Shown: piece by piece, positions 4,601 to 53,715 of the stretch
Layout: each line of letters begins with the position of its first letter
Numbering within the stretch: the first letter of the stretch is position 1
Assembly (NCBI GenBank): GCA_001778985.1
Contig: MFIU01000001.1
Coordinates: 126,001-190,000 of the forward strand
Origin: Candidatus Giovannonibacteria bacterium RIFOXYD1_FULL_48_21
GTDB taxonomy: Bacteria; Patescibacteriota; Minisyncoccia; JACPKW01; UBA11713
Length of the DNA: 64,000 nucleotides
Direction: 5' to 3'
Position numbers and translations under genes: made by a program
Notes under the pieces: model-generated
The model's input: the letters and a program-made list of their open reading frames with translations, nothing else
Told to the model about the DNA's origin: nothing
Database searches by the model: none

Positions 4601-5431
4601 ATTTCCGGCCTGGTCAAAGATGCGCACGGAGTCGTGGCGGTTGGACCAGAATTCGCTCTCTCTTCCCATAAAAATCCGCCATTCTTTCTGGTCAAAATCC
4701 GCGTCGTTTTTGAAATCTTTAACACAGCCGGTGTAGTTCGCGTGCTCTGCCACAAACTGGGAACATTCGTCGTCAATGCCCGAGGAGAAATTAATGGTCG
4801 GAGAGGTGCAGTAGGCGATGCGCTCGACGAAAATTTGGCATTTCTCTTTTAAGTTTTTGAATTTGGCAAGCTCGTCCAGCCGCGGGCAGGAGAAAGGCAG
4901 GTCGGGATAATAAGTTTTATTCTGCGCCAGATAGCCCGAGCATTTGTTAACCTTGAAATTGAATCCGCGGGGGCTCTCGCCAGTGGCGATAACGGCGCGC
5001 TCGCCGGGATTTAGAAAAATCGCGCTTCCGAATTCGTCCCGGCCCACTTCAATGGTTTCATTGTTCCGGTTTTTCAGGATAAGGCCGGTTATGACCACTT
5101 TTATTTTGTTCAGGTTTGGAGCGGAGATTTGAATATGCTCACGTTCAAGTTCCAGCCGCGTGCCTCCGGAAGACAGGAGGTTTAGTTGGCCTGGGCTTAT
5201 TGGGACGATGGGCGTTGGCAGAGGTGCCGGTGCCGGAGGAGTGGGTGAGGGAGCTGGAGAGGGAGCTGGCCGTAATTCTTCTTCCACGGTTCCTTCTCTG
5301 GAAGGGGAACCGAAACGAATGCCCGAGCCGCCGAAAAGCCCATCGCCTCTGGAAGAGATTAAAATCACTCCGAGCACAATCAGAAAAAGCCAAATCCAAT
5401 GGTCACCGGCTGGTTTTTCATTGTCCGCCAT
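4577..5431 (-). CDS. hypothetical membrane-anchored/secreted protein with Pro-rich linker and Cys-rich C-terminal domain
   Basis: N-terminal TM helix, PAPSPAPSPTPPAPAPLPTP linker, 6+ Cys in the C-terminal part. Confidence 0.45.
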   Translation of the reverse strand: MADNEKPAGDHWIWLFLIVLGVILISSRGDGLFGGSGIRFGSPSREGTVEEELRPAPSPAPSPTPPAPAPLPTPIVPISPGQLNLLSSGGTRLELEREHIQISAPNLNKIKVVITGLILKNRNNETIEVGRDEFGSAIFLNPGERAVIATGESPRGFNFKVNKCSGYLAQNKTYYPDLPFSCPRLDELAKFKNLKEKCQIFVERIAYCTSPTINFSSGIDDECSQFVAEHANYTGCVKDFKNDADFDQKEWRIFMGRESEFWSNRHDSVRIFDQAGNLISEVSY

Positions 5432-6625: not shown

Positions 6626-6697
6626 GTCCCCATAGCTTAACGGATAAAGTACAGCCCTCCGAAGGCTGGGATCGAGGTTCAATTCCTCGTGGGGACG
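6626..6697 (+). tRNA. tRNA-Arg (anticodon CCG)
   Basis: manual cloverleaf: acceptor GTCCCCA/TGGGGAC, D-stem GCTT/AAGT, anticodon stem CAGCC/GGCTG with loop CTCCGAA, T-arm CGAGG-TTCAATT-CCTCG; 72 nt. Confidence 0.7.
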
Positions 6698-6698
6698 C

Positions 6699-6769
6699 CG
6701 GGCTGTAGTATAGCGGTAGTACACAAGGCTGGGGGTCTTGTAGCCGGGGTCCGACTCCCCGCAGCCCGA
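6699..6769 (+). tRNA. tRNA-Pro (anticodon GGG)
   Basis: acceptor CGGGCTG/CAGCCCG, anticodon stem CAAGG/TCTTG with loop CTGGGGG (G37), T-arm CGGGG-TCCGACT-CCCCG; begins 1 nt after tRNA-Arg. Confidence 0.65.
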
Positions 6770-9801: not shown

Positions 9802-10542
9802 ATGAAAGATTTCGGTCTTCTTAAGAATCAAGCTTTAAATCTAAGAAAAAAAGGGTTAAGTTATAGTGAAATCCGTAGTAAGATTAAAGTTTCAAAAAGC
9901 ACTTTAAGCATGTGGCTAAAGGGCGTGAAGCTGAAACCTGAACACCGAGCGAGATTATATACTAAGCAAATTCAAATACTTTCACGCGGCCCACAAAGCC
10001 AAAAGGAAAGGAGGGCGAGAGAAATTAAAGAAATTGTAAAAGAAGCAAGCAATGAGATTAAACTTCCCCTCTCGTCCGAAGCCCACCGTCTTATTGGGGT
10101 GGGGTTATACTGGGCGGAAGGATCGAAAGGCAAAATGTTTCAAATAACGAATTCTGACCCGTATTTAATTCTTTTCATGGTGCGGTGGATAGAAAAGATT
10201 TTTAGTATTTCTGTAGAAACTTTAAGAGCACGGCTGAATATTTACCCCCAGCAGGGCGATCTGAAAATTAAGAAATTCTGGTCGAATCTTACAGGGATTC
10301 CGTTGAAAAATTTTAAAAAAAGTTATATAAAGCCGCTTAGTACAGGATATAAGAAGAATAATCTTTATTATGGGACAATTAGGATCGAAGTTCCTAAAAG
10401 TGCCAACTTTGTTTGTAAAACGTTCGGATGGGTTCAAGGACTATTGGCGGATATTAAGCCGCAAGTTGATTTTGTTCAAAAGAAATGGCGTCATCTTTCA
10501 AAAGTGCCCCGGCCTGTGAATTTAAATCCCCCCATAGCTTAA
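9802..10542 (+). CDS. LAGLIDADG-like homing-endonuclease-fold protein with N-terminal HTH
   Basis: LIGVGLYWAEGSKG fits the single LAGLIDADG motif; N-terminus LRKKGLSYSEIRSKIKVSKSTLSMWLKG is HTH-like; start chosen at the second Met (ORF opens at 9724); the stop codon lies inside tRNA-Lys. Confidence 0.4.
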   Translation: MKDFGLLKNQALNLRKKGLSYSEIRSKIKVSKSTLSMWLKGVKLKPEHRARLYTKQIQILSRGPQSQKERRAREIKEIVKEASNEIKLPLSSEAHRLIGVGLYWAEGSKGKMFQITNSDPYLILFMVRWIEKIFSISVETLRARLNIYPQQGDLKIKKFWSNLTGIPLKNFKKSYIKPLSTGYKKNNLYYGTIRIEVPKSANFVCKTFGWVQGLLADIKPQVDFVQKKWRHLSKVPRPVNLNPPIA

Positions 10543-10599
10543 CGGTAAAGCACCCGCCTCTTAAGCGGTGAGTTCTAGGTTCAAATCCTAGTGGGGGGA
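10528..10599 (+). tRNA. tRNA-Lys (anticodon CTT)
   Basis: acceptor CCCCCCA/TGGGGGG, D-stem GCTT/AAGC, anticodon loop CTCTTAA, T-arm CTAGG-TTCAAAT-CCTAG. Confidence 0.65.
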
Positions 10600-20714: not shown

Positions 20715-20984
20715 ATGGACCAGATTTTAGTGAAGCCGATGGTAAGCGAAAAAAATACCTTACTCTCCAGCCGAGGCGTTTATGTTTTTCAGGTGGAAAA
20801 TGAGGCCAATAAGATCACGATTAAAAAAGCGGTGGAGCGTCTTTATAAGGTGAGGGTTGAGAGAGTCAATTTAGTGAAAGTTTTACCAAAGAAACGAATC
20901 TTGCGGGGCCGGGTTGGGTTTCGTCCCGGCTATAAAAAGGCGCTGGTCTTTTTGGCCGCGGGGCAGAAAATTGATTTAACATGA
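20715..20984 (+). CDS. rplW: 50S ribosomal protein L23
   Basis: MDQILVKPMVSEKNTLL... Confidence 0.9.
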   Translation: MDQILVKPMVSEKNTLLSSRGVYVFQVENEANKITIKKAVERLYKVRVERVNLVKVLPKKRILRGRVGFRPGYKKALVFLAAGQKIDLT

Positions 20985-20985
20985 A

Positions 20986-21094
20986 TCCCGTTAGAAATTC
21001 AACCAAGATTATTATAAGATATTTTGCAGTGAGCGAACTCACCTTTGGTTTTTATAATTGCGGCAAAGGCTTATTAGTAAAATTTCTAACGGGA
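20986..21094. mobile_element. MITE-like TIR element, subtype B copy 1 (109 bp)
   Basis: TIR TCCCGTTAGAAAT / ATTTCTAACGGGA; flanked by direct TGAA (20982-85 and 21095-98); the last A of the element plus TG of the repeat form the rplB ATG. Confidence 0.6.
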
Positions 21095-21921
21095 TGAAAA
21101 CTTATCGCGCCTTCACTCCATCCCGCCGGCAGATGACCGGGATTGAATATAAAAAGATTTTAACTCGTTCCGAACCCGAGAAGAGTTTGACTTTTGGCCG
21201 GAAGAGAGCTTTCGGCCGGTCGAACCAGGGACGGATTACGACCCGTCATAAGGGCGCGGGCGCGAAACGGCTTTGGCGCGAGGTGGATTTTTCTATGGAG
21301 AAAAAAGATATTCCGGCCAAAGTGCTTTCGATTGAATATGACCCCAACCGCACCGCCTTCATCGGTCTCGCGGCCTACCGCGACGGTGCGAAGCGCTACC
21401 TGGTTTTGCCCTCCGGCGTCGGCGTCGGCGATGAAATTTTAACTTCTGAAAAAGCGCCGCTGAAGCGCGGCAACCGCTTGCCTCTTAAAAATATTCCGGT
21501 CGGCAGTCAGGTCTATAATATAGAAGTTTATCCCGGCGGCGGAGCCAAACTGGTCAGGGGCGCGGGAACCTTCGCCCAGATTCTGGCGCAGGACGCGCCC
21601 ATAACTTTGCTTAAACTTCCTTCCGGGGAGATTCGAAAATTACAGGATCGCGCTTGGGCGTCTTTGGGCCAGGTTTCGAATCAGGACGCGAATTTGGTGG
21701 TGATTGGAAAAGCCGGACGTTCGCGCTGGCTCGGCATCAGGCCCACGGTTCGCGGCTCAGCCATGAACCCCGTGGATCATCCCTATGGGGGCGGCGAAGG
21801 CCGGGCGCTCCGAGGCACCAGGCGCCCTAAAAACAAGTGGGGCAAGGGGGGGCGGGGAGTGAAAACCCGTTCCAGAAAGAAGTGGTCGGCGAGTCTGATT
21901 GTTGCGAGAAGAACGAAATAA
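21094..21921 (+). CDS. rplB: 50S ribosomal protein L2
   Basis: [14 protein letters not shown]...; start placed at the Met immediately after the element (the ORF track starts inside the element at 21058). Confidence 0.9.
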
Positions 21922-25296: not shown

Positions 25297-25482
25297 ATGG
25301 CGAAGACTTCCGTAATTGCGCGCTCAAAGAAAAAACCGAAATTTTCTAGCCGCATCGTCAGGCGCTGTTTTCGCTGCGGCCGGAAACGAGGCTATATGAG
25401 AGATTTTGAATTATGCCGCATCTGCTTTAGGGAGTTGGCTAACGAAGGCGTTATTCCCGGAATTAGGAAATCGAGCTGGTAA
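25297..25482 (+). CDS. rpsZ: 30S ribosomal protein S14 type Z (zinc-binding)
   Basis: 61 aa, CFRCGRKRGYMRDFELCRICFRE. Confidence 0.9.
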   Translation: MAKTSVIARSKKKPKFSSRIVRRCFRCGRKRGYMRDFELCRICFRELANEGVIPGIRKSSW

Positions 25483-25483
25483 G

Positions 25484-25585
25484 CCCCGTTAGAAAATCTA
25501 CATGCAATACTATTCACAAAAAATAAATATCTCTCGCAAAAACTGGTCTTGGTCGCATCAGCTTATTAGAGATTTTCTAACGGGG
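25484..25585. mobile_element. MITE-like TIR element, subtype A copy 1 (102 bp)
   Basis: 16-bp perfect TIR CCCCGTTAGAAAATCT / AGATTTTCTAACGGGG; between the rpsZ stop and the rpsH start. Confidence 0.6.
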
Positions 25586-25590
25586 TAAAT

Positions 25591-25980
25591 ATGGACCCGA
25601 TTGCGGACATGTTAACCCGAATTAAGAACGCCGCCCTTGTTAAAAAGGAGACGGTTTTAGTTCCATATTCCCAGATGAAGTTTGAGATTGCCAATATTTT
25701 GAAAGAGCGAGGCTATATTTCGCTGGTGGAGCGGCGGGGGCGCAAGAACAGAAAGTTTTTGGAACTTGGGCTGGCCTACGAACCGGACGGCTCGCCGCGG
25801 CTGCACGGCGCCAAAAGAGTTTCCAAGCCCTCCCGGCGGATTTACCGCAAAGTAGCGGAAATAAGACCGGTCCGGCGAGGTTTTGGGCTGGCAATTATTT
25901 CCACCCCGAAAGGACTCAAAGGCGACGCCGCCGCTAGGCGCGAGCGGGTCGGCGGCGAAGTTATTTGCGAAATTTGGTAA
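25591..25980 (+). CDS. rpsH: 30S ribosomal protein S8
   Basis: MDPIADMLTRIKNA. Confidence 0.9.
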   Translation: MDPIADMLTRIKNAALVKKETVLVPYSQMKFEIANILKERGYISLVERRGRKNRKFLELGLAYEPDGSPRLHGAKRVSKPSRRIYRKVAEIRPVRRGFGLAIISTPKGLKGDAAARRERVGGEVICEIW

Positions 25981-25984
25981 TTCA

Positions 25985-26086
25985 CCCCGTTAGAAAATCT
26001 ACATGCAATACTATTCACAAAAAATAAATATCTCTCGCAAAAACTGGTCTTGGTCGCATCAGCTTATTAGAGATTTTCTAACGGGG
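25985..26086. mobile_element. MITE-like TIR element, subtype A copy 2 (100% identical to copy 1)
   Basis: identical 102-bp sequence; flanks TAATTCA and TAAATG. Confidence 0.6.
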
Positions 26087-26089
26087 TAA

Positions 26090-26632
26090 ATGTCGCGATT
26101 AGGAAAAAAACCTATTTTGATTCCGAGCGGGGTCGTGGTTAAAATCCAGGGTTCGAAAGTTTCCGTCCAAGGGCCGAAGGGAGAGCTTTCGCGCGATTTT
26201 CGGAATGAGATTTCAATCGAGTCTGACGGTCAAATCGTTAAGCTTGCGCCCCGCGTCCACAGCCGGCTTTCGAAAAAACTTTGGGGCACTTACGTTTCCT
26301 TGATTAAGAACATGTTAAAGGGAGCGAGCGAAGAATTTTCCAAAAAACTTATTTTGGAGGGAATCGGTTACCGGGCCGAGCTCGCCGGCAAAGATTTGGT
26401 TCTCTTTTTGGGATTTTCGCATCCGGTAAAGTTTTCGGCTGAAGCCGGCATTAATTTTCAGGTTGAAAAAAATTTGATAACCGTTTCTGGAATCGATAAA
26501 GAAAAAGTCGGGGCTGCGGCGGCGAGGCTCCGCTCTCTTAAGAAGCCCGATCCTTACAAGGGCAAGGGTATCCGCTACGAGGGCGAGGTTATCCGCAGGA
26601 AGGCCGGCAAGAAAGCGGTCAGCACCACATAA
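26090..26632 (+). CDS. rplF: 50S ribosomal protein L6
   Basis: MSRLGKKPILIPSGVVVKIQG. Confidence 0.9.
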   Translation: MSRLGKKPILIPSGVVVKIQGSKVSVQGPKGELSRDFRNEISIESDGQIVKLAPRVHSRLSKKLWGTYVSLIKNMLKGASEEFSKKLILEGIGYRAELAGKDLVLFLGFSHPVKFSAEAGINFQVEKNLITVSGIDKEKVGAAAARLRSLKKPDPYKGKGIRYEGEVIRRKAGKKAVSTT

Positions 26633-26633
26633 G

Positions 26634-26966
26634 ATGAAATCAAAAAGATTAAGCCATCATCGAAGAATTCGGGCAAAAATTTTCGGAACGGCCGAGCGGC
26701 CGCGCCTGGCGGTTTTCCGTTCTGCGAAGCACCTCGAGGTACAGCTGGTGGACGATGCCCAGCGTAAGACCCTGTGGGGCGCGAAGGATTTAAAGATTAA
26801 AAAAGGCACCAAAACCGAACGCGCCGCCAAATTCGGCGGCGAGGCCGCGAAAGGAATTTTAGCCAAGGGTTATAAAAAAATTGTTTTTGACCGCGGCCGC
26901 TGCCAGTATCAAGGCCGCGTTAAGGTCCTGGCCGAAGCTTTAAGAAAGGGTGGTTTAGAGTTTTGA
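26634..26966 (+). CDS. rplR: 50S ribosomal protein L18
   Basis: RPRLAVFRSAKHLEVQLVDD. Confidence 0.9.
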   Translation: MKSKRLSHHRRIRAKIFGTAERPRLAVFRSAKHLEVQLVDDAQRKTLWGAKDLKIKKGTKTERAAKFGGEAAKGILAKGYKKIVFDRGRCQYQGRVKVLAEALRKGGLEF

Positions 26967-26970
26967 TTCA

Positions 26971-27072
26971 CCCCGTTAGAAAATCTACATGCAATACTAT
27001 TCACAAAAAATAAATATCTCTCGCAAAAACTGGTCTTGGTCGCATCAGCTTATTAGAGATTTTCTAACGGGG
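26971..27072. mobile_element. MITE-like TIR element, subtype A copy 3 (100% identical)
   Basis: identical 102-bp sequence; flanks TGATTCA and TAAATG. Confidence 0.6.
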
Positions 27073-27075
27073 TAA

Positions 27076-27543
27076 ATGGCTGGGCGCAGAGAAAAATCAG
27101 AATTTTCCGAAAAACTTATTGACTTAAGAAGAGTTTCCCGTGTTATGGCTGGCGGCAGACGTTTCAGTTTTCGCGCCACGGTTGTGATAGGAGACAGAAA
27201 GGGTCGGGTGGGGGTCGGCGTCGGCAAAGGGACGCATACCGCTCTGGCTATGGAAAAAGCGGTTAGGGTTGCCAAAAAAAATATGGTGGAAGTTCCGCTC
27301 TCGGAAAACGGCTCGATTCCTTTTGAAGTCCAAGCCAAATACGGCGCCGCCAGGATTATAATGCGCCCGGCCAAAGCGGGGCGGGGGCTTACGGCCGGAG
27401 GCGCGGCGCGGATTGTTCTGGAGTTGGCCGGCGTGAGCAACGCCTCGGCCAAGGTCCTTTCCCACACTAAAAATAAAATTTCCAACGCTCGGGCGGCGCT
27501 GGAGGCCTTAAGACATTTAAGATATGCAGCTTCACGAACTTAA
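27076..27543 (+). CDS. rpsE: 30S ribosomal protein S5
   Basis: LIDLRRVSRVMAGGRRFSFRATVVIGD. Confidence 0.9.
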   Translation: MAGRREKSEFSEKLIDLRRVSRVMAGGRRFSFRATVVIGDRKGRVGVGVGKGTHTALAMEKAVRVAKKNMVEVPLSENGSIPFEVQAKYGAARIIMRPAKAGRGLTAGGAARIVLELAGVSNASAKVLSHTKNKISNARAALEALRHLRYAASRT

Positions 27544-29211: not shown

Positions 29212-29315
29212 GGATATTCACACCCTCTCTTGAAATAGTCGAACTTTTAGTAGACCTTTTACGTTTAGTTAAGGAGTTACTTGATTTTTTTAAATATTTC
29301 TGATATATTTTTTAC

Positions 29316-29504
29316 ATGACAACTTCCATTCAGGAGAAAAAAATTGAGGAGGCAATAATAAGGGTTTTACAGACAATGATGGCTGACCCGGATTTCGGGT
29401 TGGAACTGCGCCCCGAATTTGAGAGAAAATTAATGAAATCCGCTGCTTCCAGGAAAGCCGGGCACCTTAAAGATTTCAGAGAGGTGCTTGCTTCGCTTTT
29501 GTGA
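29316..29504 (+). CDS. small hypothetical protein (62 aa), possible antitoxin-like partner
   Basis: its stop overlaps the GTG of a RelE/ParE-like remnant (GTGA). Confidence 0.3.
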   Translation: MTTSIQEKKIEEAIIRVLQTMMADPDFGLELRPEFERKLMKSAASRKAGHLKDFREVLASLL

Positions 29505-29611
29505 GCGATAGCTGGAGAATTAAATTCACTCCCGAAGGAGAACAAGATTTAACCAGACTCGATAGAATTGAGCTTAGAGATAAAGTTTATAAGAAGAGAA
29601 GGAAAAGATGA
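29501..29611 (+). pseudogene. truncated RelE/ParE-family toxin-like remnant (36 codons)
   Basis: translation SDSWRIKFTPEGEQDLTRLDRIELRDKVYKK matches the N-terminal helix pattern of RelE/ParE toxins (I/V-x-F-T-x-x-A/G-x-x-D-L-x-x-L) but stops after 36 aa; its stop overlaps the adk ATG. Confidence 0.25.
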
Positions 29612-30963: not shown

Positions 30964-31776
30964 ATGCCGCAGCCGGATATCTACCCCGTTAGAAGTAAGT
31001 CGCCGTCGGCGACTGCCGTTCCTTTCTCGGAACGGACTTCTAACGGGGTCTATCTCTCCGTCATAATTCCCGCGTACAACGAGGCGGAGCGATTGCCTAA
31101 AACTTTAAGAAGATTTCAGGAATATTTTCAATCCAAACCCTTTTCTTATGAGATTATCGTGGCCGCGGACGGCCCTTCTGACAATACGATTGAAATTGCC
31201 CAAAATATGGCCGCGGAGATAAAAAATCTTAAGGTTTTGGAACGAAGGCAAAACCGCGGCAAAGGTTACACCGTCCGGGAAGGGATGCTGGCCGCCCAAG
31301 GCCGCCTCCGGCTTTTCGCCGACGCCGACAATTCCACGGATATTTCTCATTTTGACAAAATGCGCTCTCTTTTTGATAAGGGCTGCGACGTGGTCATTTG
31401 CTCCCGCGACGAAAAGGATGCCCCGGGCGCGAAACAAGCGGTTCCTCAAGCGTGGCCTAAGCGCCTTTTAGGGAATATGGGAAACCTTTTTATCCAATTC
31501 ATTGCGGTTCGGGGGATTTGGGACACCCAGTGCGGTTTTAAGGCTTTTCGCTCCGCGGCGGCTCAAAATATTTTCTCGCGCGCCAGAATAAACCGCTGGG
31601 GCTTTGACATCGAAGTTTTGGCGCTGGCCCGCGCTTTGAATTATAAAATCGGCATCATCCCCGCCAACTGGATAAACGACCCCAAAAGCCACGTGAAATT
31701 GTCCGGGTATTTGCAGGTTTTGTGGGAGACCGTCAAAATAAGATGGAATTTAATGACGGGCCGATATAATTTATGA
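30964..31776 (+). CDS. family-2 glycosyltransferase (DPM1-like) carrying a 23-codon in-frame element insertion near the N-terminus
   Basis: LSVIIPAYNEAERL...IIVAADGPSDNT... Confidence 0.7.
   Translation: MPQPDIYPVRSKSPSATAVPFSERTSNGVYLSVIIPAYNEAERLPKTLRRFQEYFQSKPFSYEIIVAADGPSDNTIEIAQNMAAEIKNLKVLERRQNRGKGYTVREGMLAAQGRLRLFADADNSTDISHFDKMRSLFDKGCDVVICSRDEKDAPGAKQAVPQAWPKRLLGNMGNLFIQFIAVRGIWDTQCGFKAFRSAAAQNIFSRARINRWGFDIEVLALARALNYKIGIIPANWINDPKSHVKLSGYLQVLWETVKIRWNLMTGRYNL
30984..31048. mobile_element. MITE-like TIR element, subtype D (65 bp), inserted in frame in the GT2 gene
   Basis: TIR CCCCGTTAGAAGT / ACTTCTAACGGGG; perfect 4-bp direct repeat TCTA on both sides; 65+4=69 bp keeps the reading frame. 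Confidence 0.6.
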
Positions 31777-40247: not shown

Positions 40248-40261
40248 TTAGGGGTAATGAA

Positions 40262-40370
40262 CCCCGTTAGAAATTCAGACGAGGCTATCATAAGATATTT
40301 TACATTGAGCAAATTCGCCTTCGGCTTTTTTAACCGCAACAAAAGTTTATTGGTAAAATTTTTAACGGGG
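40262..40370. mobile_element. MITE-like TIR element, subtype B copy 2 (109 bp, ~78% identical to copy 1)
   Basis: TIR CCCCGTTAGAAATTC / AAATTTTTAACGGGG; direct TGAA flanks (40258-61 and 40371-74); the last G plus TG form the GTG start of the downstream gene. Confidence 0.6.
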
Positions 40371-41737
40371 TGAAAATTTCTTTTTTCGGAGGAGCGCAAG
40401 AAGTGACCGGCTCCTGTTTTCTTTTCGATTCAGGCAAAACCAAGGTTTTGGTGGATTGCGGGCTTTTCCAGTGCCCGCGTTTTTGCGATATTCGTTCCAA
40501 AGAGCCCTTTCCTTTTAACCCTAAAGAAATTTCCGCGCTTTTTGTAACTCACGCCCACATCGACCATACCGGAAGGATTCCAAAACTGATTAAAGCGGGT
40601 TTTTCCGGGAAGATTTTTTCCACCCCGCCCACGAAAGAGCTTGCGGAACTGATGCTTTCCGATAGTTTGGGGGTGCTCGAAAAAGAAGCCAAGCGCCATA
40701 ATGAACCTTTGTTCTATGAAGAACGTGATATCGCCGCCGCGCTCGAGCTTTGGAAGGGAATCGATTATTATCAGAAACTTGAGATCGGCGATTTCAAAAT
40801 AAGACTGCTCGATTCCGGCCATGTTTTAGGGTCGGCCATGGTTGAGTTTGAGGTCGGCACCCGCCTGTCGGACGGGCAGGGGAAGAAAATAGTACTCACC
40901 GGAGACTTGGGAAATCCTCCCACCCCGCTTCTTCGAGATCCGGAGGAAGTGCGGGATGCCCAAGTTCTTCTCATTGAGTCTACCTACGGCAACCGCGTTC
41001 ATGAGAATCGGCCGGAGCGCAAGCTTAAGCTCGAGCGCGTCATCGAGGACACTCTTAAAGCCGGAGGGGTTCTGATGATTCCGGCTTTTTCTCTCGAGCG
41101 CACTCAAGAGCTTTTGGCCGAGATAGACGATTTGGTGCAGTTCGGCCGGATTCCCCAGGTTCCGATTTTTCTGGATTCGCCTTTGGCGATTAAAGCCACC
41201 GCCGTTTATAAAAAATACAAAAGTTATTTTAACAAAGAGGTGCACCTTAAAATCAAATCCGGAGACGACCTCTTCCGCTTTCCAGGACTTCGCTTCACGC
41301 TTACCACCGCCGAGTCAAAACAAATCAACGAGGTGCCGCCTCCGAAAATCATTATCGCGGGTTCGGGGATGTCGACCGGAGGACGGATTTTGCATCACGA
41401 ACGGCGCTATCTTTCCGACCCCAAGAGCACTCTTTTGATGGCGGGCTATCAGGCCGCGGGCTCATTGGGGAGGGTACTTCAAGACGGAGCCAGCGAGGTT
41501 ACGATTTTCGGGGAGAAAATCCCAGTGAGGGCCAGAGTTGAAACGCTTCAAGGTTATTCCGCCCATCCGGATCGGGAGCAGCTTCTGGAGTTCGTTTCCA
41601 AGAGCAAAGATTCGCTGGAGGAGGTTTTCGCGATTCAGGGCGAACCAGCGTCGTGCCTTTTCATGGTGCAGCGGATTCGGGATTATTTGGGGATTGACGC
41701 CTCGGCGCCGAAATACGGAGAAACATATGAAATATGA
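40370..41737 (+). CDS. beta-CASP family MBL-fold ribonuclease (RNase J/CPSF-like)
   Basis: VDCGLFQ, VTHAHIDHTGRIP, beta-CASP motifs; apparent GTG start created at the element junction. Confidence 0.65.
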   Translation: MKISFFGGAQEVTGSCFLFDSGKTKVLVDCGLFQCPRFCDIRSKEPFPFNPKEISALFVTHAHIDHTGRIPKLIKAGFSGKIFSTPPTKELAELMLSDSLGVLEKEAKRHNEPLFYEERDIAAALELWKGIDYYQKLEIGDFKIRLLDSGHVLGSAMVEFEVGTRLSDGQGKKIVLTGDLGNPPTPLLRDPEEVRDAQVLLIESTYGNRVHENRPERKLKLERVIEDTLKAGGVLMIPAFSLERTQELLAEIDDLVQFGRIPQVPIFLDSPLAIKATAVYKKYKSYFNKEVHLKIKSGDDLFRFPGLRFTLTTAESKQINEVPPPKIIIAGSGMSTGGRILHHERRYLSDPKSTLLMAGYQAAGSLGRVLQDGASEVTIFGEKIPVRARVETLQGYSAHPDREQLLEFVSKSKDSLEEVFAIQGEPASCLFMVQRIRDYLGIDASAPKYGETYEI

Positions 41738-42418: not shown

Positions 42419-43524
42419 AGACGATTGAGGGGCTGGGGCTCTTGTTGGGAATGATTATAGGCGCAGGGCTTTTCGCCCTGCCGTATAGTTTTTTAAAATC
42501 CGGAATTTTGTGGGGCGGCTTGCTTTTTGTTTTAGTTTTTCTGATAAGCTGGCTTTTGCATTCGCTCTACGCCGCCATAATCTATATCACTCCCGGTAAA
42601 CACCGCTTCCCCGGATACATTAAATTACATCTGGGCGAGCGAGCGGAAACTCTGGCGGCGATTTTCACCTTTCTCTCTTACTACGGAGCTATGCTCGCCT
42701 ATGGCCTTTTGGGCGCGATTTTTCTCCAGACTATTTTTGGGCTTGATTTTTTATGGAGCGGAATTTTATTCTTCATCGCCGGGGGAGCGCTCTTTTTTTT
42801 GTCGCTGCGGGTGGTTGGAAAAATAAATTTCTATCTCACCCTCCCGCTTTTGGCCTTCATCCTTATTCTGGTGGTCCAATTATTTCCGGATGTGGCGAGA
42901 GAAAACTTTACCCTGCCGTCCGGCCCGGACTTTCTCCTGCCTTACGGAGTTTTTCTCTTCGCTTTCGGAGGGTACGCCGCCCTTCCGGATTTGCATGATG
43001 TTTTGGGCGCCAATCGGAGAAAACTTTCCAAAAAAATAATTTTTGCGAGCCTCGCGATTTCGGCTCTTTTTTACCTCATTTTCATTCTCGCGGTCCTGGG
43101 CGCCTCCGGCGCCCGGACTTCCCCTGACTCTTTCTCCGGGCTTCTGCCAGTCGCGGCGGGGAGCGTGGTTTTAATCGGTTCTATAATCGGAATTTTAACC
43201 GTATTTACATCGTATATCGTCTTCGGCGTCGATTTAAAACTGACTTTCCGTTACGATTACAAATTTTCAGAGGCTCATTCCTGGATTTTGGCGTTCGGAC
43301 CGCCTATTTTGCTTTTCGCTTTTGGCTTTACTGACCTGATTAAAATTTTGAGCCTCGTCGGCTCGGTCGGCCTCGGGGTTTTCGCGGTTTTTATTTTGCT
43401 GATTTCCTGGCGGGAGCGCGAAAAACTCGCGTCTTTTCTGGGTTTTGTCCCGCGGGCCTGGTGGCTTTTGCCTTTGGGAATTTTGGTTGTTCTGGGCGCC
43501 TTGCAGGATATACTTAATCTATGA
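42415..43524 (+). CDS. amino-acid permease (HAAAP/Trp-Tyr permease-like)
   Basis: 11 TM; N-terminus GLLLGMIIGAGLFALPYSF. Confidence 0.5.
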   Translation: MKTIEGLGLLLGMIIGAGLFALPYSFLKSGILWGGLLFVLVFLISWLLHSLYAAIIYITPGKHRFPGYIKLHLGERAETLAAIFTFLSYYGAMLAYGLLGAIFLQTIFGLDFLWSGILFFIAGGALFFLSLRVVGKINFYLTLPLLAFILILVVQLFPDVARENFTLPSGPDFLLPYGVFLFAFGGYAALPDLHDVLGANRRKLSKKIIFASLAISALFYLIFILAVLGASGARTSPDSFSGLLPVAAGSVVLIGSIIGILTVFTSYIVFGVDLKLTFRYDYKFSEAHSWILAFGPPILLFAFGFTDLIKILSLVGSVGLGVFAVFILLISWREREKLASFLGFVPRAWWLLPLGILVVLGALQDILNL

Positions 43525-43525
43525 A

Positions 43526-43628
43526 TCCCGTTAGAAAATCTACGAGCTTTTATATTTTAGATTCAAGCATTCTTGTTTTAGAGGGTCGGCTATGGTCAAG
43601 TCGGCCTATGGTAGATTTTCTAACGGGA
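43526..43628. mobile_element. MITE-like TIR element, subtype C (103 bp)
   Basis: TIR TCCCGTTAGAAAATCTA / TAGATTTTCTAACGGGA; direct TGAA flanks (43522-25 and 43629-32); the last A plus TG form the downstream ATG. Confidence 0.6.
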
Positions 43629-44869
43629 TGAAAATAGCGGCGGACCTTCATATCCATTCCAAATTCTCCCGGGCGGTTTCCAAGGAGATGACTTTGGAGA
43701 ATTTGGATACTTGGGCGAGAAAAAAAGGCATCAATGTTTTGGGTACAGGGGATTTCACGCATCCGCAGTGGTTTAGGGAAATAAAAGCCAAGCTTGAACC
43801 AAGCGAGGCAGGACTATACAAATTAAAGGGTTCTGATTCTGGAACGAGATTCATTCTGACGGTGGAAATTTCGAATATCTACACCAAGAATAAAAAAGGC
43901 CGAAGGGTTCATAACTTAATTTTCGTGCCGACCATCGAAGCGGCGGAGAAAATTAATGAGCGTTTGGGCTGGCAGGGGAATTTGCGCTCGGACGGCCGTC
44001 CGATTCTGGGTCTCGATTCGAAAGAACTTTTGAAAATTGTTCTCGACATTGAGCCCCGTTCGCTTTTTGTTCCGGCTCACGCCTGGACGCCTTGGTTTTC
44101 GATTTTCGGCTCCATGTCCGGTTTTGATTCCATCGAAGAATGTTTTGACGAGTATTCAAAATATATTTATGCGATTGAAACCGGGCTCTCTTCCGACCCG
44201 GCCATGAACTGGCGGCTTTCGAAGCTAGATAAAATCGCCTTGATTTCAAATTCGGACAGCCATTCCTTGGAGCGAATCGGACGGGAAGCCAATGTTTTCG
44301 ATTGCGAGCTTTCTTATGACGCGATTGTCGAGGCGATAAAATCCAAAAATCCCAAAAAGTTTCTCTATACCATCGAATTTTTTCCGGAAGAAGGAAAGTA
44401 TCACTATGATGGGCACCGGCTTTGCAATTTTTCACAAGACCCGGCCGTGACCAAAGAGAAAGGCAAAATCTGTCCAGTCTGCAAGCGGCCGATGACCATC
44501 GGAGTTTTGTACCGGGTGGAAGAGTTGGCGGATAGACCATCCGGAACAAAACCGGCCAATGCCGTCCCCTTTAAGAGTTTGGTCACGCTCGATAAAATTA
44601 TCGGCGATGCTTTGGGAGTGGGTGAGAAGTCAAAAGCCGTGCAGAGAGAATATGAAAGTTTGATTCAAAAGTTCGGAAACGAGCTCGCGGTTTTGCTTGA
44701 TGTTCGGGAATCTGATTTGAAATCCGCCACAGATTCACGAATTTCCGAAGGAATTTTGAAAGTCCGCGAAGGCAAGGTGAAAGTCACACCCGGCTATGAC
44801 GGCGAGTATGGAAAAATTTCCATTTTTAATGCCGAAGATTTAAAAGTCCCCCAAGAGAGTTTATTTTAA
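43628..44869 (+). CDS. PHP-domain protein with C-terminal zinc ribbon
   Basis: MKIAADLHIHSKFS (PHP motif I), conserved His/Asp in later motifs, CPVCKRP. Confidence 0.5.
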   Translation: MKIAADLHIHSKFSRAVSKEMTLENLDTWARKKGINVLGTGDFTHPQWFREIKAKLEPSEAGLYKLKGSDSGTRFILTVEISNIYTKNKKGRRVHNLIFVPTIEAAEKINERLGWQGNLRSDGRPILGLDSKELLKIVLDIEPRSLFVPAHAWTPWFSIFGSMSGFDSIEECFDEYSKYIYAIETGLSSDPAMNWRLSKLDKIALISNSDSHSLERIGREANVFDCELSYDAIVEAIKSKNPKKFLYTIEFFPEEGKYHYDGHRLCNFSQDPAVTKEKGKICPVCKRPMTIGVLYRVEELADRPSGTKPANAVPFKSLVTLDKIIGDALGVGEKSKAVQREYESLIQKFGNELAVLLDVRESDLKSATDSRISEGILKVREGKVKVTPGYDGEYGKISIFNAEDLKVPQESLF

Positions 44870-47286: not shown

Positions 47287-47407
47287 TCATTAAAGCTGGA
47301 AATGTAGGGCTGTCTTACATTTTCGAAGCTGTGGTCCTTTAACTCACCTCTGCGAAAAAGGCTATTCGCAGAAGGTTATGCTCCCAATGGGAAGCGAAGG
47401 AGGTTTT

Positions 47408-48058
47408 ATGAAGCCAAGTTTTGAACAAGGGATTTTGTTTGACCGGAATGTCGTAGAACTCAAGGCGAAGCTTGACCACGACGAAATGCAACGGCTGATT
47501 GAGGGCTTCAATCTTGTCTACGGCATCGCCAAAGGCAAGGTCAAGAGAACGGCGTCAGTATTATTAAATCTTGTCGTTTCCGGAGTGAGCATTACCGCAG
47601 CGCCCGCCGCGAAAACGGATGACTGTTTCAAGGTCGGGGACGGCGTCTTCGCTTATCGTGACCAGGATTTTGACCGCTGGTTGCCGGCAACGGTTCCGGC
47701 CGTGGGCGCGGGCAACGCCTCGACGTTTGAGTTTGAAATAGATCTCAACTTTCAGGAAATTGTAGAGGCGCACCTCGGCACCAAAGGCTCAATCGATGAG
47801 CTCAAAAAAGCGCTTATCGAGAATGGAAAGTGCTGGAGCCCGAAGCAGATAGATAAGCTCATCCGCAACTGCGAGAATGGCGACAATCCCTTAAAACTGC
47901 GGACTGACGGCTATGCCAATTTCTTCTTTATTGATATTGGCGGCGGCGTCTTCGCGGTCAGCGCCTATCGGTTCTCGGACGGCTGGGACATGTATGTCTA
48001 CGAGTTCGCGGACACCAATCGCTGGCGCGTCGAGGACCGCGTTTCTTTCCGCAACTGA
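47408..48058 (+). CDS. DGR target protein (variable C-terminus)
   Basis: strong SD GAAGGAGG 5 nt before ATG 47408; the last ~36 codons are the VR. Confidence 0.7.
   Translation: MKPSFEQGILFDRNVVELKAKLDHDEMQRLIEGFNLVYGIAKGKVKRTASVLLNLVVSGVSITAAPAAKTDDCFKVGDGVFAYRDQDFDRWLPATVPAVGAGNASTFEFEIDLNFQEIVEAHLGTKGSIDELKKALIENGKCWSPKQIDKLIRNCENGDNPLKLRTDGYANFFFIDIGGGVFAVSAYRFSDGWDMYVYEFADTNRWRVEDRVSFRN
47947..48055 (+). repeat. DGR variable repeat (VR)
   Basis: 109 bp, 89% identical to the TR; all 12 mismatches fall at positions where the TR has A. Confidence 0.8.
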
Positions 48059-48089
48059 TTCTTTGTTTCTTTGTCCCTCCGCATCCTAA

Positions 48090-48120
48090 ACGCCGGGTGT
48101 TCATCCTGAACATCCGGCGT
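48090..48120 (+). other. GC-rich hairpin immediately downstream of the VR (DGR target-recognition hairpin)
   Basis: ACGCCGGGTGTTCA-TCC-TGAACATCCGGCGT, 14-bp stem with 3-nt loop. Confidence 0.55.
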
Positions 48121-48326
48121 ATCTTTTTTAATGCTATACTCAATATGAATTTCGCTGGCATCCCCGGTCAAGGCTTGGGGTGGCGAAATTCCGGTCTGAA
48201 ATTTTTATTTCCGCCCGTCAAAAAACAAACAGTTGGTGCGGTCTGCTAGGAAACATTAAGGTTTCAAATACTATACAGCCCCGAGAGTATTCAAAGGGCA
48301 GTGGATTGGGCGGCAGGCGGCACGAA

Positions 48327-48435
48327 ACGTCTTCGCGGTCAACGCCAATCGGAACTCGGACGGCTGGAACATGAATGTCAACGAGTTCGCGAACACCAAT
48401 CGCTGGAACGTCGAGAACCGCGTTTCTTTCCGAAA
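48327..48435 (+). repeat. DGR template repeat (TR)
   Basis: nine AAC/AAT codons aligned to diversified VR codons. Confidence 0.8.
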
Positions 48436-48789
48436 CTATTTGTTTTCTCCCGCTGCGCTCTGGCGGGAGTTTTTGCTCCAACCGTAGAGCATTTTCCCGA
48501 CCTCATTCAGATGCTTGGAAAGCAGAATATACTTTTTATTGTTAAGCATCTTTATTTCCCAAGATACTTGCAGAAAGAATTTAAGAATGTCCAGTTTATT
48601 TTGGGCTTTATCCAAATACGGCAATTTCTCTTGTCTCGGCAGATAACTTGCTATGAATAACGATTCAAGGGTTTCCAGGAAGAGTAAATCTATTTTAGCG
48701 CCGAGCGTCAGGCGCAATGTTTTTGGGAGATTTTCAAAAACCCCATGCCACGATTTGTAGACCGCAACCAAGCGCCCGATGATGAGCAC
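48436..48789 (-). CDS. avd: Avd-like four-helix-bundle protein (accessory variability determinant)
   Basis: 117 aa; C-terminal LNEVGKMLYGWSK resembles the TIGR02436/bAvd EIGxxLxGW tail; GTG start; opposite strand to TR/RT. Confidence 0.55.
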   Translation of the reverse strand: MLIIGRLVAVYKSWHGVFENLPKTLRLTLGAKIDLLFLETLESLFIASYLPRQEKLPYLDKAQNKLDILKFFLQVSWEIKMLNNKKYILLSKHLNEVGKMLYGWSKNSRQSAAGENK

Positions 48790-48889
48790 GGTTCCGTAAG
48801 GGGGGGGGCTTAAAGGAAGAATTCAATTCGGACATAGTTTTGAAGATATCATTTCGGTTGAAAATCTCCTAGCGGCTTGGAAAGAATTT

Positions 48890-49777
48890 TTGAAAGGGAA
48901 ACGCAATAAACCTGATGTCCAAGAATTTTCGATACGGCTCATGGATAATATTCTAGCACTTTACCAAGAACTTGCCTCTAAAACTTACGAGCACGGCGGC
49001 TATAAATCCTTTCACATCTTTGACCCCAAGCCGAGGCATATCCACAAAGCCAGTGTTCGCGATAGATTATTACACCATGCCATTTACCGGAAGCTCTATA
49101 CGTTCTTTGACAGAACTTTCATTACCGATTCATTTTCCTGCCGCAAGAACAGAGGAACACATAAGGCACTAAACGGGTTTAAAGCGTTTGGGCAAAAAGT
49201 AAGTCGAAACAACACCAAAATCTGCTGGGTTTTGAAAGGCGACATCCGAAAGTTCTTTCAGAACATTGACCATGAAGTTTTAATGAATACTTTATCGCAG
49301 CATATCCCTGATAAAAATATTCTCTGGCTTCTAAAAAAAGTTATTGAGAGTTTTTCTCCCGGTCTACCCCTCGGCAACCTAACTTCCCAGCTTTTCGTTA
49401 ATATCTATATGAACGAATTTGACCAATTTGTGAAACATAAATTGAAAGTAAAATATTATATTCGCTACGCGGACGACTTCGTGATTTTGTCGGAAGATAA
49501 AAGCGAACTCCATAATCTAATTCCAAAAATCAGAGATTTTTTTCAAGACACCCTGCGTCTCGAACTCCATCCCGACAAAGTTTTTATCAAAACTCTTGCT
49601 TCCGGCGTTGACTTTTTGGGCTGGGTTCATTTTCCGGACAATAGGGTATTGCGAACGGCGACCAAAAGGCGGATGATTAAAAGGATACAAGATAATCTAA
49701 ATCCCCAGACCTTGAATTCATACCTCGGTTTTCTGAAACACGGAAATACATATAAACTTCGGAAAGAAATTTACTGA
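48890..49777 (+). CDS. DGR-type reverse transcriptase
   Basis: YADD box (IRYADDFVIL) and the DGR-specific PLGNLTSQ motif; conserved N-terminal residues (FEDIISVENLLAAWKEF) lie in frame upstream of the called TTG start, back to ~48800. Confidence 0.8.
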   Translation: MKGKRNKPDVQEFSIRLMDNILALYQELASKTYEHGGYKSFHIFDPKPRHIHKASVRDRLLHHAIYRKLYTFFDRTFITDSFSCRKNRGTHKALNGFKAFGQKVSRNNTKICWVLKGDIRKFFQNIDHEVLMNTLSQHIPDKNILWLLKKVIESFSPGLPLGNLTSQLFVNIYMNEFDQFVKHKLKVKYYIRYADDFVILSEDKSELHNLIPKIRDFFQDTLRLELHPDKVFIKTLASGVDFLGWVHFPDNRVLRTATKRRMIKRIQDNLNPQTLNSYLGFLKHGNTYKLRKEIY

Positions 49778-52975: not shown

Positions 52976-53006
52976 ATAGTTTAATTATAGAGTAATTGAA
53001 TTTTGT

Positions 53007-53276
53007 TGTGGAGATGGCGGGAATTGAACCCGCGTCAGAAGAAATTTTGAACCGCGGTTGACAGGCTTAAAACTTTTGAAGGTTTTTCTCGCTTATAACA
53101 CCCGCGACCCTCTAGCGAGAATCAAGGACGGATGCTTACACAGACTTAATTAAGCAACTGCGTAAGAAGGTTGGAATAAGTTTGCACTTACTACATTGAG
53201 AGATTTTTAAGAGCTAACTCTCGTCCTCTGCCTGAGCGCCTGCTCAAACTTTTCCTCCTCGAGGCCGATCATCCCC
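53007..53276 (-). ncRNA. ssrA: tmRNA (ssrA), about 270 nt
   Basis: 5' GGGGATG pairs with 3' CATCTCC-A (G3:U wobble), T-arm GCGGG-TTCAATT-CCCGC, tag reading frame GCA AAC TTA TTC CAA CCT TCT TAC GCA GTT GCT TAA (ANLFQPSYAVA*) at 53150-53185. Confidence 0.65.
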
Positions 53277-53715
53277 GTTTTAAAGTTCTACTGATTTCTC
53301 TTTCAATGTCGCGTTTCTTTATCTTTTCCCTCTTCTCGAATCTCTTTTTGCCTCGGACGACAGCGATTTCTATCTTGATTCTGCAGTGCGTAGTATACAC
53401 CTTGGTGGGGATTACAGTCAAGCCCCTTTCCTCTGCCTTTCCAGCCAGGCGCGAGATTTCTTTTTTATGCAACAAAAGTTTTCGCGTTCTTTGCGGCTCG
53501 TAATCTGGAGGCGTGTTTTTCGGCTGATAGGGCGGGATATCCATCCCGACAATATGGGCTTCATTGCCCCGGATGATGACGCGCGCGCCCATGATATTTC
53601 CGCGCTTTGATTTCAAAGATTTCACTTCAAATCCCTTCAATTCCAACCCGGCCTCGTATTTCTCAAGGATTTCATAATTGAAATATGCTTTTTTGTTTTC
53701 CAAAAGCGCGGGCAT
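53269..53715 (-). CDS. smpB: SsrA-binding protein SmpB
   Basis: KAYFNYEILEKYEAGLELKGFEVKS... Confidence 0.85.
   Translation of the reverse strand: MPALLENKKAYFNYEILEKYEAGLELKGFEVKSLKSKRGNIMGARVIIRGNEAHIVGMDIPPYQPKNTPPDYEPQRTRKLLLHKKEISRLAGKAEERGLTVIPTKVYTTHCRIKIEIAVVRGKKRFEKREKIKKRDIEREISRTLKRG

Follow-up and report, generated by a model that had tools for sequence, protein, structure and literature searches.

Correia elements (CREE/NEMIS), which are restricted to the one genus Neisseria, have terminal inverted repeats (TIRs) of 26 bp and a TA target duplication, and carry internal promoters and a site for integration host factor (IHF). Mycobacterial interspersed repetitive units (MIRUs) are short intergenic units of operons, whose small open reading frames (ORFs) overlap the upstream stop and the downstream start codon, with coupling preserved. 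Repetitive extragenic palindromic (REP) sequences make no target duplication, consist of an imperfect palindrome with a GTAG-type head, and share their genome with a RAYT (Y1 transposase) gene. In piggyBac transposons the TIRs are 13 bp long (CCCTAGAAAGATA) and the target duplication is TTAA, one special case of TnnA. For piggyBac, the prokaryotic outgroup in use is IS1380 (PMC10813416). The TIR stem of Correia elements is a substrate of RNase III, which alters the fate of the mRNA, and the Rickettsia palindromic elements (RPEs), about 100-150 bp long, carry conserved peptides and lie inside ORFs in about half of the cases (PMC10969869). Here we describe a 102-bp element that occurs in three identical copies within the spc ribosomal protein operon of Candidatus Giovannonibacteria bacterium RIFOXYD1_FULL_48_21 (assembly GCA_001778985.1, contig MFIU01000001.1). 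The whole stretch of 64,000 nucleotides that was analysed (positions 126,001 to 190,000 of the contig) is called the window, and all coordinates below count from its first letter unless a locus is named. We are fairly confident that the three spc copies are recent insertions of a non-autonomous, transposase-less element resembling MITEs, the miniature inverted-repeat transposable elements, which would explain an odd feature of an essential operon as ordinary mobile DNA.

The 102-nt string has three occurrences in the window, all on the + strand and with no mismatch, and none is expected (100 shuffles). The first copy, e2, lies between rpsZ and rpsH at 25484-25585 (rpsZ stop 25480-25482, rpsH ATG 25591); the second, e3, between rpsH and rplF at 25985-26086 (rpsH stop 25978-25980, rplF ATG 26090); and the third, e4, between rplR and rpsE at 26971-27072 (rplR stop 26964-26966, rpsE ATG 27076). 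By Pfam, on an identical public contig, the flanking genes encode S14, S8, L6-L18 and S5. The ends, CCCCGTTAGAAAATCT…AGATTTTCTAACGGGG, form a perfect 16-bp TIR in each copy, with arms at 25484-25499 and 25570-25585 in e2, 25985-26000 and 26071-26086 in e3, and 26971-26986 and 27057-27072 in e4; in e3 and e4 the inverted repeat measures 21 bp at 95% complementarity. Identity continues past the 102 nt, to 107 nt across all three copies (up to 25590, 26091 and 27077) and to 113 nt between e3 and e4 (25980-26092 and 26966-27078). The 5' arm sets in 1-5 nt past the stop codon of the upstream gene, and the distance from the end of the 3' arm to the ATG is 5 nt at rpsH, 3 nt at rplF and 3 nt at rpsE. 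Spacers containing the copies are 108-109 nt long, that of rplW/rplB, which holds a fourth element, is 109 nt, and the remaining junctions of the S10-spc cluster range from -26 to +6 nt. These measurements bear out the sequence-only reading of this locus in three respects: that 100%-identical 102-bp copies fill the rpsZ/rpsH, rpsH/rplF and rplR/rpsE gaps, that each stops 3-5 nt ahead of the next ATG, and that genes of such operons are normally tightly packed, rplW/rplB being the one other exception here. A sequence scan found no promoter- or terminator-like site inside the spc copies. Each contains a 28-codon ORF (MQYYSQKINISRKNWSWSHQLIRDFLTG*) on the + strand, at 25502-25588, 26003-26089 and 26989-27075, and at the latter two positions its TAA directly abuts the ATG of the next gene; its translation is doubtful, as no SD-like (Shine-Dalgarno-like) sequence lies upstream.

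By comparison with relatives, the sites can be seen in their empty state. The nearest relatives by L6 are Candidatus Giovannonibacteria-like Parcubacteria, and in a sister genome (GCA_964361955.1, locus L131; L6 90% identical) no element is present in a 13.5-kb contig extending from tuf to a glycosyltransferase gene, and five of five comparable sites are empty. The sister reads TGGTGATATGGAC (TGG-TGA-T-ATG) at rpsZ/rpsH, TGGTGATATTATGTCG (TGG-TGA-TATT-ATG) at rpsH/rplF and TTTTAATTATGGCC (TTT-TAA-TT-ATG) at rplR/rpsE, and its spc junctions are 1-4 nt long. Its rplW/rplB junction is AACATGAAAACTT, with an overlap of the stop TGA and the start ATG; in the window this place has AAC-ATGAA-[TCCCG…CGGG]-ATGAA-AACTT, which is a TGAA duplication plus an element with the end bases T…A. 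In the sister GT2 glycosyltransferase gene, which is 23 codons shorter, the corresponding site reads GATATATATCTG, and the window gene has CCCC…GGGG and a second TCTA, exactly 23 added codons, ahead of the catalytic domain. Three further, more distant Giovannonibacteria-like relatives likewise have tight junctions and no elements. The comparison with sister genomes that had been proposed for this operon thus finds the same element absent from the spc junctions of four relatives. The proposal that identity implies recent spread also holds, since the sister junctions are tight and element-free and the strain-level variants carry three copies in all cases. Once the nearest sequenced sister species had split off, one subfamily would have undergone a short-range burst that left three identical copies in a stretch of 1.6 kb.

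In fact, a search for the inverted-repeat core shows that the window holds seven elements with the common ends YCCCGTTAGAA…TTCTAACGGGR and differing interiors, the four outside the spc copies all being on the + strand with a matching target-site duplication (TSD). Element e1, 109 bp long, lies between rplW and rplB at 20986-21094 (TSD TGAA, 20982-20985 and 21095-21098). Element e6, also 109 bp, precedes a beta-CASP/MBL RNase gene at 40262-40370 (TSD TGAA, 40258-40261 and 40371-40374), and its interior is of the same type as that of e1, the two elements being about 70% alike. Element e7 (103 bp, 43526-43628; TSD TGAA, 43522-43525 and 43629-43632) is situated between a permease gene and a PHP-domain gene; its interior is loosely like that of the spc copies, the resemblance covering the ends and the right half. 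The shortest, e5, is a GC-rich element of 65 bp at 30984-31048 (TSD TCTA, 30980-30983 and 31049-31052) in the N-terminus of the GT2 glycosyltransferase gene (30964-31776), where the insertion is in frame: element plus TSD amount to 69 nt, or 23 codons, and the GT2 domain begins at residue 32. The window elements therefore have the attributes of MITEs in their small size (65-109 bp) without a transposase gene, in their TIRs (16 bp and perfect in the spc copies, 13 bp in the family), and in their dispersed copies with insertion polymorphism (seven in 64 kb, and the empty sister sites).

The family extends far beyond this genome. One genome per species was scanned with the pattern CCCGTTAGAA-N60-90-TTCTAACGGG, which gave at least 120 loci in about ten phylum-level groups; the family-wide statistics in this text (134-153 elements) were drawn from among the matches listed. 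The labels of the host metagenome-assembled genomes (MAGs) among the matches listed comprise many Patescibacteria lineages, Omnitrophota, Planctomycetota, Thermodesulfobacteriota/Deltaproteobacteria, Nitrospirae, Gammaproteobacteria, Bdellovibrionales, Clostridia, Cloacimonadota and others, and some hosts clearly lie outside the Candidate Phyla Radiation (CPR), such as that of locus L051, which encodes FabF on a 1.2-Mb contig. By our own estimate about 17 matches are due to chance, and nearly all matches also show the family flank pattern. Derived from 134 distinct elements, the TIR is 13 bp long, namely Y, CCCGTTAGAA and two variable positions (Y-CCCGTTAGAA-NN); these two inner positions are complementary between the ends in 86-89% of the elements, and beyond them complementarity is at background. 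In the definition of the family the TIR surrounds 40-90 nt of interior, which varies from lineage to lineage. The ends are spaced about 18 to 110 nt apart and enclose unrelated interiors, 127 of 150 resembling no other element. The flank is a 4-bp TnnA, for which TGAA and TAAA (or their complements) make up most cases, and the flanking 4-mers are identical on both sides in 89 of 153 elements (58%). Mobility is also apparent within single genomes: the DX4.bin27 MAG has identical copies at different sites in both orientations, one 92-bp element is found in a MAG other than the window genome at several sites in both orientations with differing duplications, and loci L003, L006 and L037 present the same element at several sites, in both orientations and with different duplications. 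Independent family members are found in the S10-spc clusters of five other Patescibacteria genomes (loci L058, L074, L087, L115 and L008); that of L115 occupies the same rpsZ/rpsH junction and has ATGAGT on both sides.

Among uncultivated bacteria from groundwater and sediment the family is widespread, and no description of it was found by sequence or topic. Rfam gave no family at the gathering score and, at a permissive threshold, only chance-level overlaps (E > 2), and a literature search on the end sequences and on MITEs in CPR/Patescibacteria returned no relevant paper. Viral contigs gave six matches, five of which are one phage locus without the family flank pattern, and were uninformative. 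The dispersal of the family, with seven copies in the window and at least 120 loci across phyla, does not support the earlier idea that the copies may be a maintained device of this operon.

Two side observations concern the arrangement of family members. Nested or abutting elements with a single common flank hexamer occur at L013 7675-7895, L047 2335-2437, L054 2958-3118, L104 2515-2697 and L113 93-256, a sequence pattern which suggests that the flank of an existing copy may be a preferred target for further insertion. At L071 5058-5165, in a Bdellovibrionales MAG, the family ends enclose a complete tRNA-Ala(CGC) gene (5074-5147), either as cargo or by chance flanking.

The positions of the elements relative to genes are far from random. 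In 73 of 139 cases at least one end of the element abuts the start or stop of a long ORF, compared with 23% for random sites, and in 18 of 139 both ends do so, compared with 0.8%; only about 4% of the copies lie inside ORFs. The preferred target is T(G/A)AA within RTGAAY or RTAAAY. Elements land at gene boundaries because T(G/A)AA resembles ATGA overlaps, TAA stops or TAA-ATG junctions, and ATGAAx starts. In the proposed mechanism, the left duplication would keep the stop codon, and the terminal purine of the element together with the duplication would rebuild ATG or GTG on the right; in e6, the terminal G plus the TSD is the start GTG of the RNase gene (40370). Both genes stay intact, so that the element is tolerated inside an essential operon and insertion is nearly harmless, which probably accounts for the independent elements in other CPR S10-spc clusters. 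The locus thereby shows how a streamlined CPR genome tolerates inserts between ribosomal protein genes, through an element that restores stop and start codons. The element itself is most likely selfish and tolerated rather than selected, and not an ancestral control device.

On the RNA level, the + strand of the spc element is predicted to fold into a long stem with a minimum free energy of -29.7 kcal/mol (z = -3.2). For the region -18 to +10 around the start codon, the predicted opening cost amounts to 21.5 (rpsH), 18.9 (rplF) and 20.9 kcal/mol (rpsE), and that of the ribosome-binding site of the PHP-domain gene behind e7 also falls in the range of 19-22 kcal/mol, whereas for most other genes of the cluster it is 6-10 kcal/mol, rplX being highest at 16.8. 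This agrees with the stem that the sequence-only reading had drawn, in which CCCC pairs with the start-proximal GGGG; the fold predicts that pairing and sequesters the start regions. The stem itself, taken there as a candidate control device, is the element's TIR, and the family has TSDs and empty sites. When a ribosome-sized stretch on the upstream stop is held single-stranded, the predicted cost falls to 11-12.5 kcal/mol. A mechanism can be proposed from these values: the stem of 16-21 bp, running from just past the upstream stop to 3-5 nt before the ATG, would bury the GGGG/SD-like stretch and the initiation region, and a ribosome terminating on the upstream gene would unzip the 5' arm and free the downstream start. 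Ancestral direct coupling would thus have been replaced by a hairpin-gated one, and on this model translation of S8, L6 and S5 probably now depends on ribosomes that finish the upstream cistron. In the sister genome rpsE is preceded by a GGAG inside rplR, which in the window now lies some 110 nt away from the ATG; the element's own GGGGTAA-ATG resembles the native AGGGGTA-ATG ahead of the RNase gene, and from this resemblance its GGGG may act as a weak SD once exposed.

As a separate observation, the minus strand of the spc element (25975-26110) folds more strongly than the plus strand, at -41.6 kcal/mol (z = -6.0), owing to an extra interior hairpin with G-U pairs.

Several points weigh against recent MITE-like insertion as outlined so far. 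The flanks of the spc copies differ: e3 and e4 have no matching duplication, both being flanked by TTCA (25981-25984 and 26967-26970) and TAAA (26087-26090 and 27073-27076), and those of e2 match at three of four positions (TAAG, 25480-25483; TAAA, 25586-25589). In the family, 64 of 153 elements (42%) have non-identical flanks, most of which differ at two or more positions, usually with T..A kept. Where both flanks are TnnA and unequal, six pairs have one difference and 16 have two, the expected shares being 39% and 61%, so the differences look like independent draws and not like mutational decay. Simple cut-and-paste with gap repair does not explain such flanks. Their orientation is biased as well, the combination of a left TTYA and a right TRAA occurring 13 times and its reverse once, and the origin of the TTCA/TAAA flanks of e3 and e4 could not be reconstructed from the sister-genome junctions. 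In addition, it is unusual among MITEs that a 13-bp end should be conserved across phyla while the interiors are unrelated, and the translational-coupling step derives from thermodynamic modelling only. Finally, searches for an autonomous partner were negative: about 60 ORFs of the window gave no transposase, Y1/RAYT or integrase Pfam match; the ORFs adjoining solitary ends (n = 10) were all housekeeping genes, with no transposase; no genuine long TIR pair with matching duplications 300-5000 bp apart was present in 145 loci (about 1 Mb), the only two pairs being spurious; and 40 diverse IS1380 transposases had no tblastn match in any of the fetched loci. These queries were diverse members from a full HMMER scan; the ISEcp1 homologue list gave only near-identical proteins.

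A piggyBac-type excision that leaves the 4-nt donor flanks as overhangs would produce the flank pattern, and serial local hops from e2 to e3 to e4 into ATTCAT sites, with TAAA carried along, would give exactly the flanks observed; recombination between copies is an alternative source of the flanks of e3 and e4. When all of these elements are joined, a more ambitious reading emerges, which we put forward only tentatively and consider rather unlikely to hold in full: the elements would belong to an undescribed cross-phylum superfamily of "gene-junction" MITEs, whose 13-bp end is read by a widespread transposase, possibly IS1380/piggyBac-like, and which seek T(G/A)AA, rebuild both codons and leave coupling hairpin-gated, the non-matching TnnA flanks, those of e3 and e4 included, being a footprint of piggyBac-style excision. 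If true, this would be the first sign of that chemistry on bacterial MITEs. Should the transposase come to light, a new group of insertion sequences could be defined by the 13-bp end together with the 4-bp target.

The strongest competitor of recent MITE-like insertion holds that, whatever their origin, the stems are now kept by selection as co-opted regulatory hairpins, which would determine the relative output of S8, L6/L18 and S5 either by gating translation or as sites of processing by RNase III, as with Correia elements in Neisseria. A strong predicted stem does cover both the initiation region and the SD-like GGGG, the three copies share one orientation with TAA immediately before the ATG, independent elements stand at ribosomal protein junctions of other CPR genomes, and Correia TIRs in mRNAs are documented to be cleaved by RNase III (PMC10969869). 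By analogy, such cleavage may be an alternative or additional fate of the spc hairpins. However, the sister and the three further relatives are free of elements and have tight junctions, so any role must be very recent; 100% identity leaves no time for visible selection; identical ends precede unrelated genes and even lie inside a coding region (e5); and promoter- and terminator-like sites are absent from the copies. We therefore regard selection for a regulatory role as improbable, although if the hairpins gate translation or are cleaved, the operon is a natural experiment in rewired ribosomal protein stoichiometry.

Less probable still, and in our judgement distinctly so, is mobilization of the element as a folded single-stranded hairpin by a tyrosine or HUH-type enzyme, in the manner of integron attC sites or REP/REPIN-RAYT systems. 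It would account for the conservation of the stem base only, with an interior that varies in sequence and in length (18-110 nt) as in attC, for the covariation of the inner TIR positions, for the resemblance of the GTTAG/CTAAC core to attC core sites, and for the failure to find a transposase. On the other hand, the order of motifs is opposite to R''(RYYYAAC)…R'(GTTRRRY) of attC, GTT being 5' and AAC 3' here; the arms are perfect, with no extrahelical bases; 4-bp TSDs and clean empty sites are not made by integron, REP/RAYT or IS200/605-type mechanisms; and the window has no Pfam match to an integrase or Y1 transposase.

It is highly improbable that the elements are small protein genes (MNPVR…FLTG, about 36 aa) that are translationally coupled to their neighbours, with the palindromic ends as a by-product. 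The idea derives from e1, e6 and e7, which carry an ORF of 36-38 codons running from the duplicated ATG to a TGA that overlaps the next start. In e1 it has 38 codons (20981-21097, + strand), with an ATG overlapping the rplW stop and a TGA overlapping the rplB ATG; in e6 it spans 40257-40373 and keeps the native ribosome-binding site, and in e7 it spans 43521-43631 with an ATG that again overlaps the upstream stop. As judged from these overlaps, such an ORF would relay ribosomes between neighbouring genes. Yet in the spc copies the relay frame is closed after 14 codons, and the full relay ORF exists in only 9 of 50 start-flanked elements. Family lengths are uniform modulo 3 (48/46/48), frames that stay open across the element show only slight enrichment (71 of 142, against 58±5 in shuffles), and conservation of the ends is at the nucleotide level, in the form of perfect inverted repeats around unrelated interiors. 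The small ORFs (28-38 codons) had no Pfam/NCBIfam match, and no transposase-sized ORF was found inside the elements. As a property of the family, the small-protein reading was rejected by open-frame enrichment, length modulo 3 and stop position, and is largely refuted.

That an assembler placed one repeat three times can practically be dismissed, since the copies are separated by unique essential genes, one structure with 0-1 mismatches over 6.5 kb is common to six or more independent assemblies, which differ in sample and assembler (among them GCA_003510385.1, GCA_001778665.1 and ENA ERZ28563774, a 292-kb ENA scaffold), and the errors seen lower the copy number and do not raise it. Some assemblies do break or collapse at the copies: JGI contig L123 begins inside one, L133 has a 100-N gap (2822-2921) in place of exactly one 501-bp period, and scaffold L134 (2640-3010) runs from rpsZ through one element to rplF, omitting rpsH. 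L133 and L134, public assemblies of the same organism, are probably both repeat collapses within an essential marker-gene cluster. The deletion product that the sequence-only reading had envisaged does appear in L134, where a real variant could be told from a collapse only with reads; we read it as a collapse because short-read assemblers do this at 102-bp repeats and rpsH is essential. The possible misassembly raised in the sequence-only reading thus gives way to a genuine arrangement, on which independent assemblies agree and from which faulty ones lose copies. Its further argument, that direct repeats so close together could persist only with low recombination or functional maintenance, is not supported, because deletion of rpsH or rplF-rplR would be lethal and would be purged by selection, so that neither is required. 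These elements disrupt short-read assemblies at ribosomal protein operons, with rpsH collapsed in one public scaffold, which is relevant to MAG quality and to marker-gene phylogenies.

The window contains several other features of note. A diversity-generating retroelement occupies 47378-49777, with a target ORF at 47378-48058, a variable repeat at 47947-48064, a template repeat at 48328-48445, on whose adenines all mismatches fall, and a reverse transcriptase gene (PF00078) at 48890-49777. Between secY and adk there is an insertion of 396 bp (29212-29607) that the sister genome lacks, the stop of secY and the start of adk overlapping there; the insertion has a promoter-like site at 29281-29309 and a 62-codon ORF at 29316-29504 with no Pfam match, and a short downstream frame seems, on our own reading, to resemble the N-terminus of a RelE/ParE-type toxin. 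An isoleucyl-tRNA synthetase-like ORF of 1151 aa (56586-60041) has a histidine-phosphatase domain (PF00300) at residues 504-680, between the halves of the catalytic domain. The tmRNA gene (53006-53276, minus strand) directly adjoins smpB (53269-53715, minus strand), and tRNA genes are located at 6626-6697, 6699-6769 and 10528-10599.

Among the described systems, the integron attC site and the REP/REPIN-RAYT system were both rejected as homes for the family. In comparison with attC, the order is reversed (5' CCCGTTAGAA … TTCTAACGGG 3'), the arms are perfect, the context is one of ribosomal protein and housekeeping genes, and no integrase match was obtained. REP/REPIN-RAYT disagrees with the 4-bp TSD and clean empty sites, with a 13-bp end that is not palindromic, and with the lack of a Y1 match in the scanned ORFs of the window. 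MIRUs share with e1, e6 and e7 the ORFs that overlap neighbouring stop and start codons, but they are tandem direct repeats without TIRs or TSDs, and the relay ORF is not family-wide here.

With respect to a transposase source, a link to IS1380 and piggyBac is a weak lead. It comes from the joint occurrence of (Y)CCC ends, a 13-bp repeat and a 4-bp T..A duplication, which is reminiscent of piggyBac and of the IS1380 family as its prokaryotic relatives. Four IS1380 ends were read: ISEcp1 CCTAGATTCTACGT, (A)CCCGAAAATTGCG, (A)CCCAGATTCTGC, whose duplication is TGATA, and (A)CCTAAAAGTTCC. The family ends begin with Y-CCC and the sampled IS1380 ends with CC(C/T), and duplications of 4-5 bp, T-initial in the one case read, are common to both, but these features are non-specific. 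Beyond the CC(C) start the two have little in common, the similarity being limited to CCC…TAGA/AAAAT, which could be chance. RPEs are mobile palindromes whose in-frame insertions into coding genes are translated, and they are comparable in that e5 is an in-frame insertion into a coding gene, adding 23 codons with the glycosyltransferase unbroken; unlike RPEs, the family has few copies inside ORFs and no conserved peptide.

Correia and Chunjie elements are also close. Like the present family, Correia elements are palindromic MITEs of about 100-150 bp with no known transposase, often situated immediately upstream of genes and co-transcribed with them, and of the systems compared they come closest, in function, to what the spc hairpins could do. 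Membership was nevertheless rejected, because the family has a 13-bp TIR (YCCCGTTAGAANN) of unrelated sequence, duplicates a 4-bp TnnA and is hosted by CPR and other phyla; the spc copies also differ in that a promoter-like site was not found in them. Chunjie, a MITE from Geobacter uraniireducens (Chen et al. 2008, cited after PMC10969869), is, in the account given there, similarly small and non-coding, with TIRs and direct repeats, and it forms a stable hairpin, was recently active and lies between operon genes without breaking the operon. As far as that account goes, it measures 178-235 bp and belongs to one genome, whereas the present family measures 65-110 bp and combines the 13-bp TIR YCCCGTTAGAANN with unrelated interiors across many phyla; the present family further differs from Chunjie, so described, in targeting stop/start junctions and regenerating both codons.

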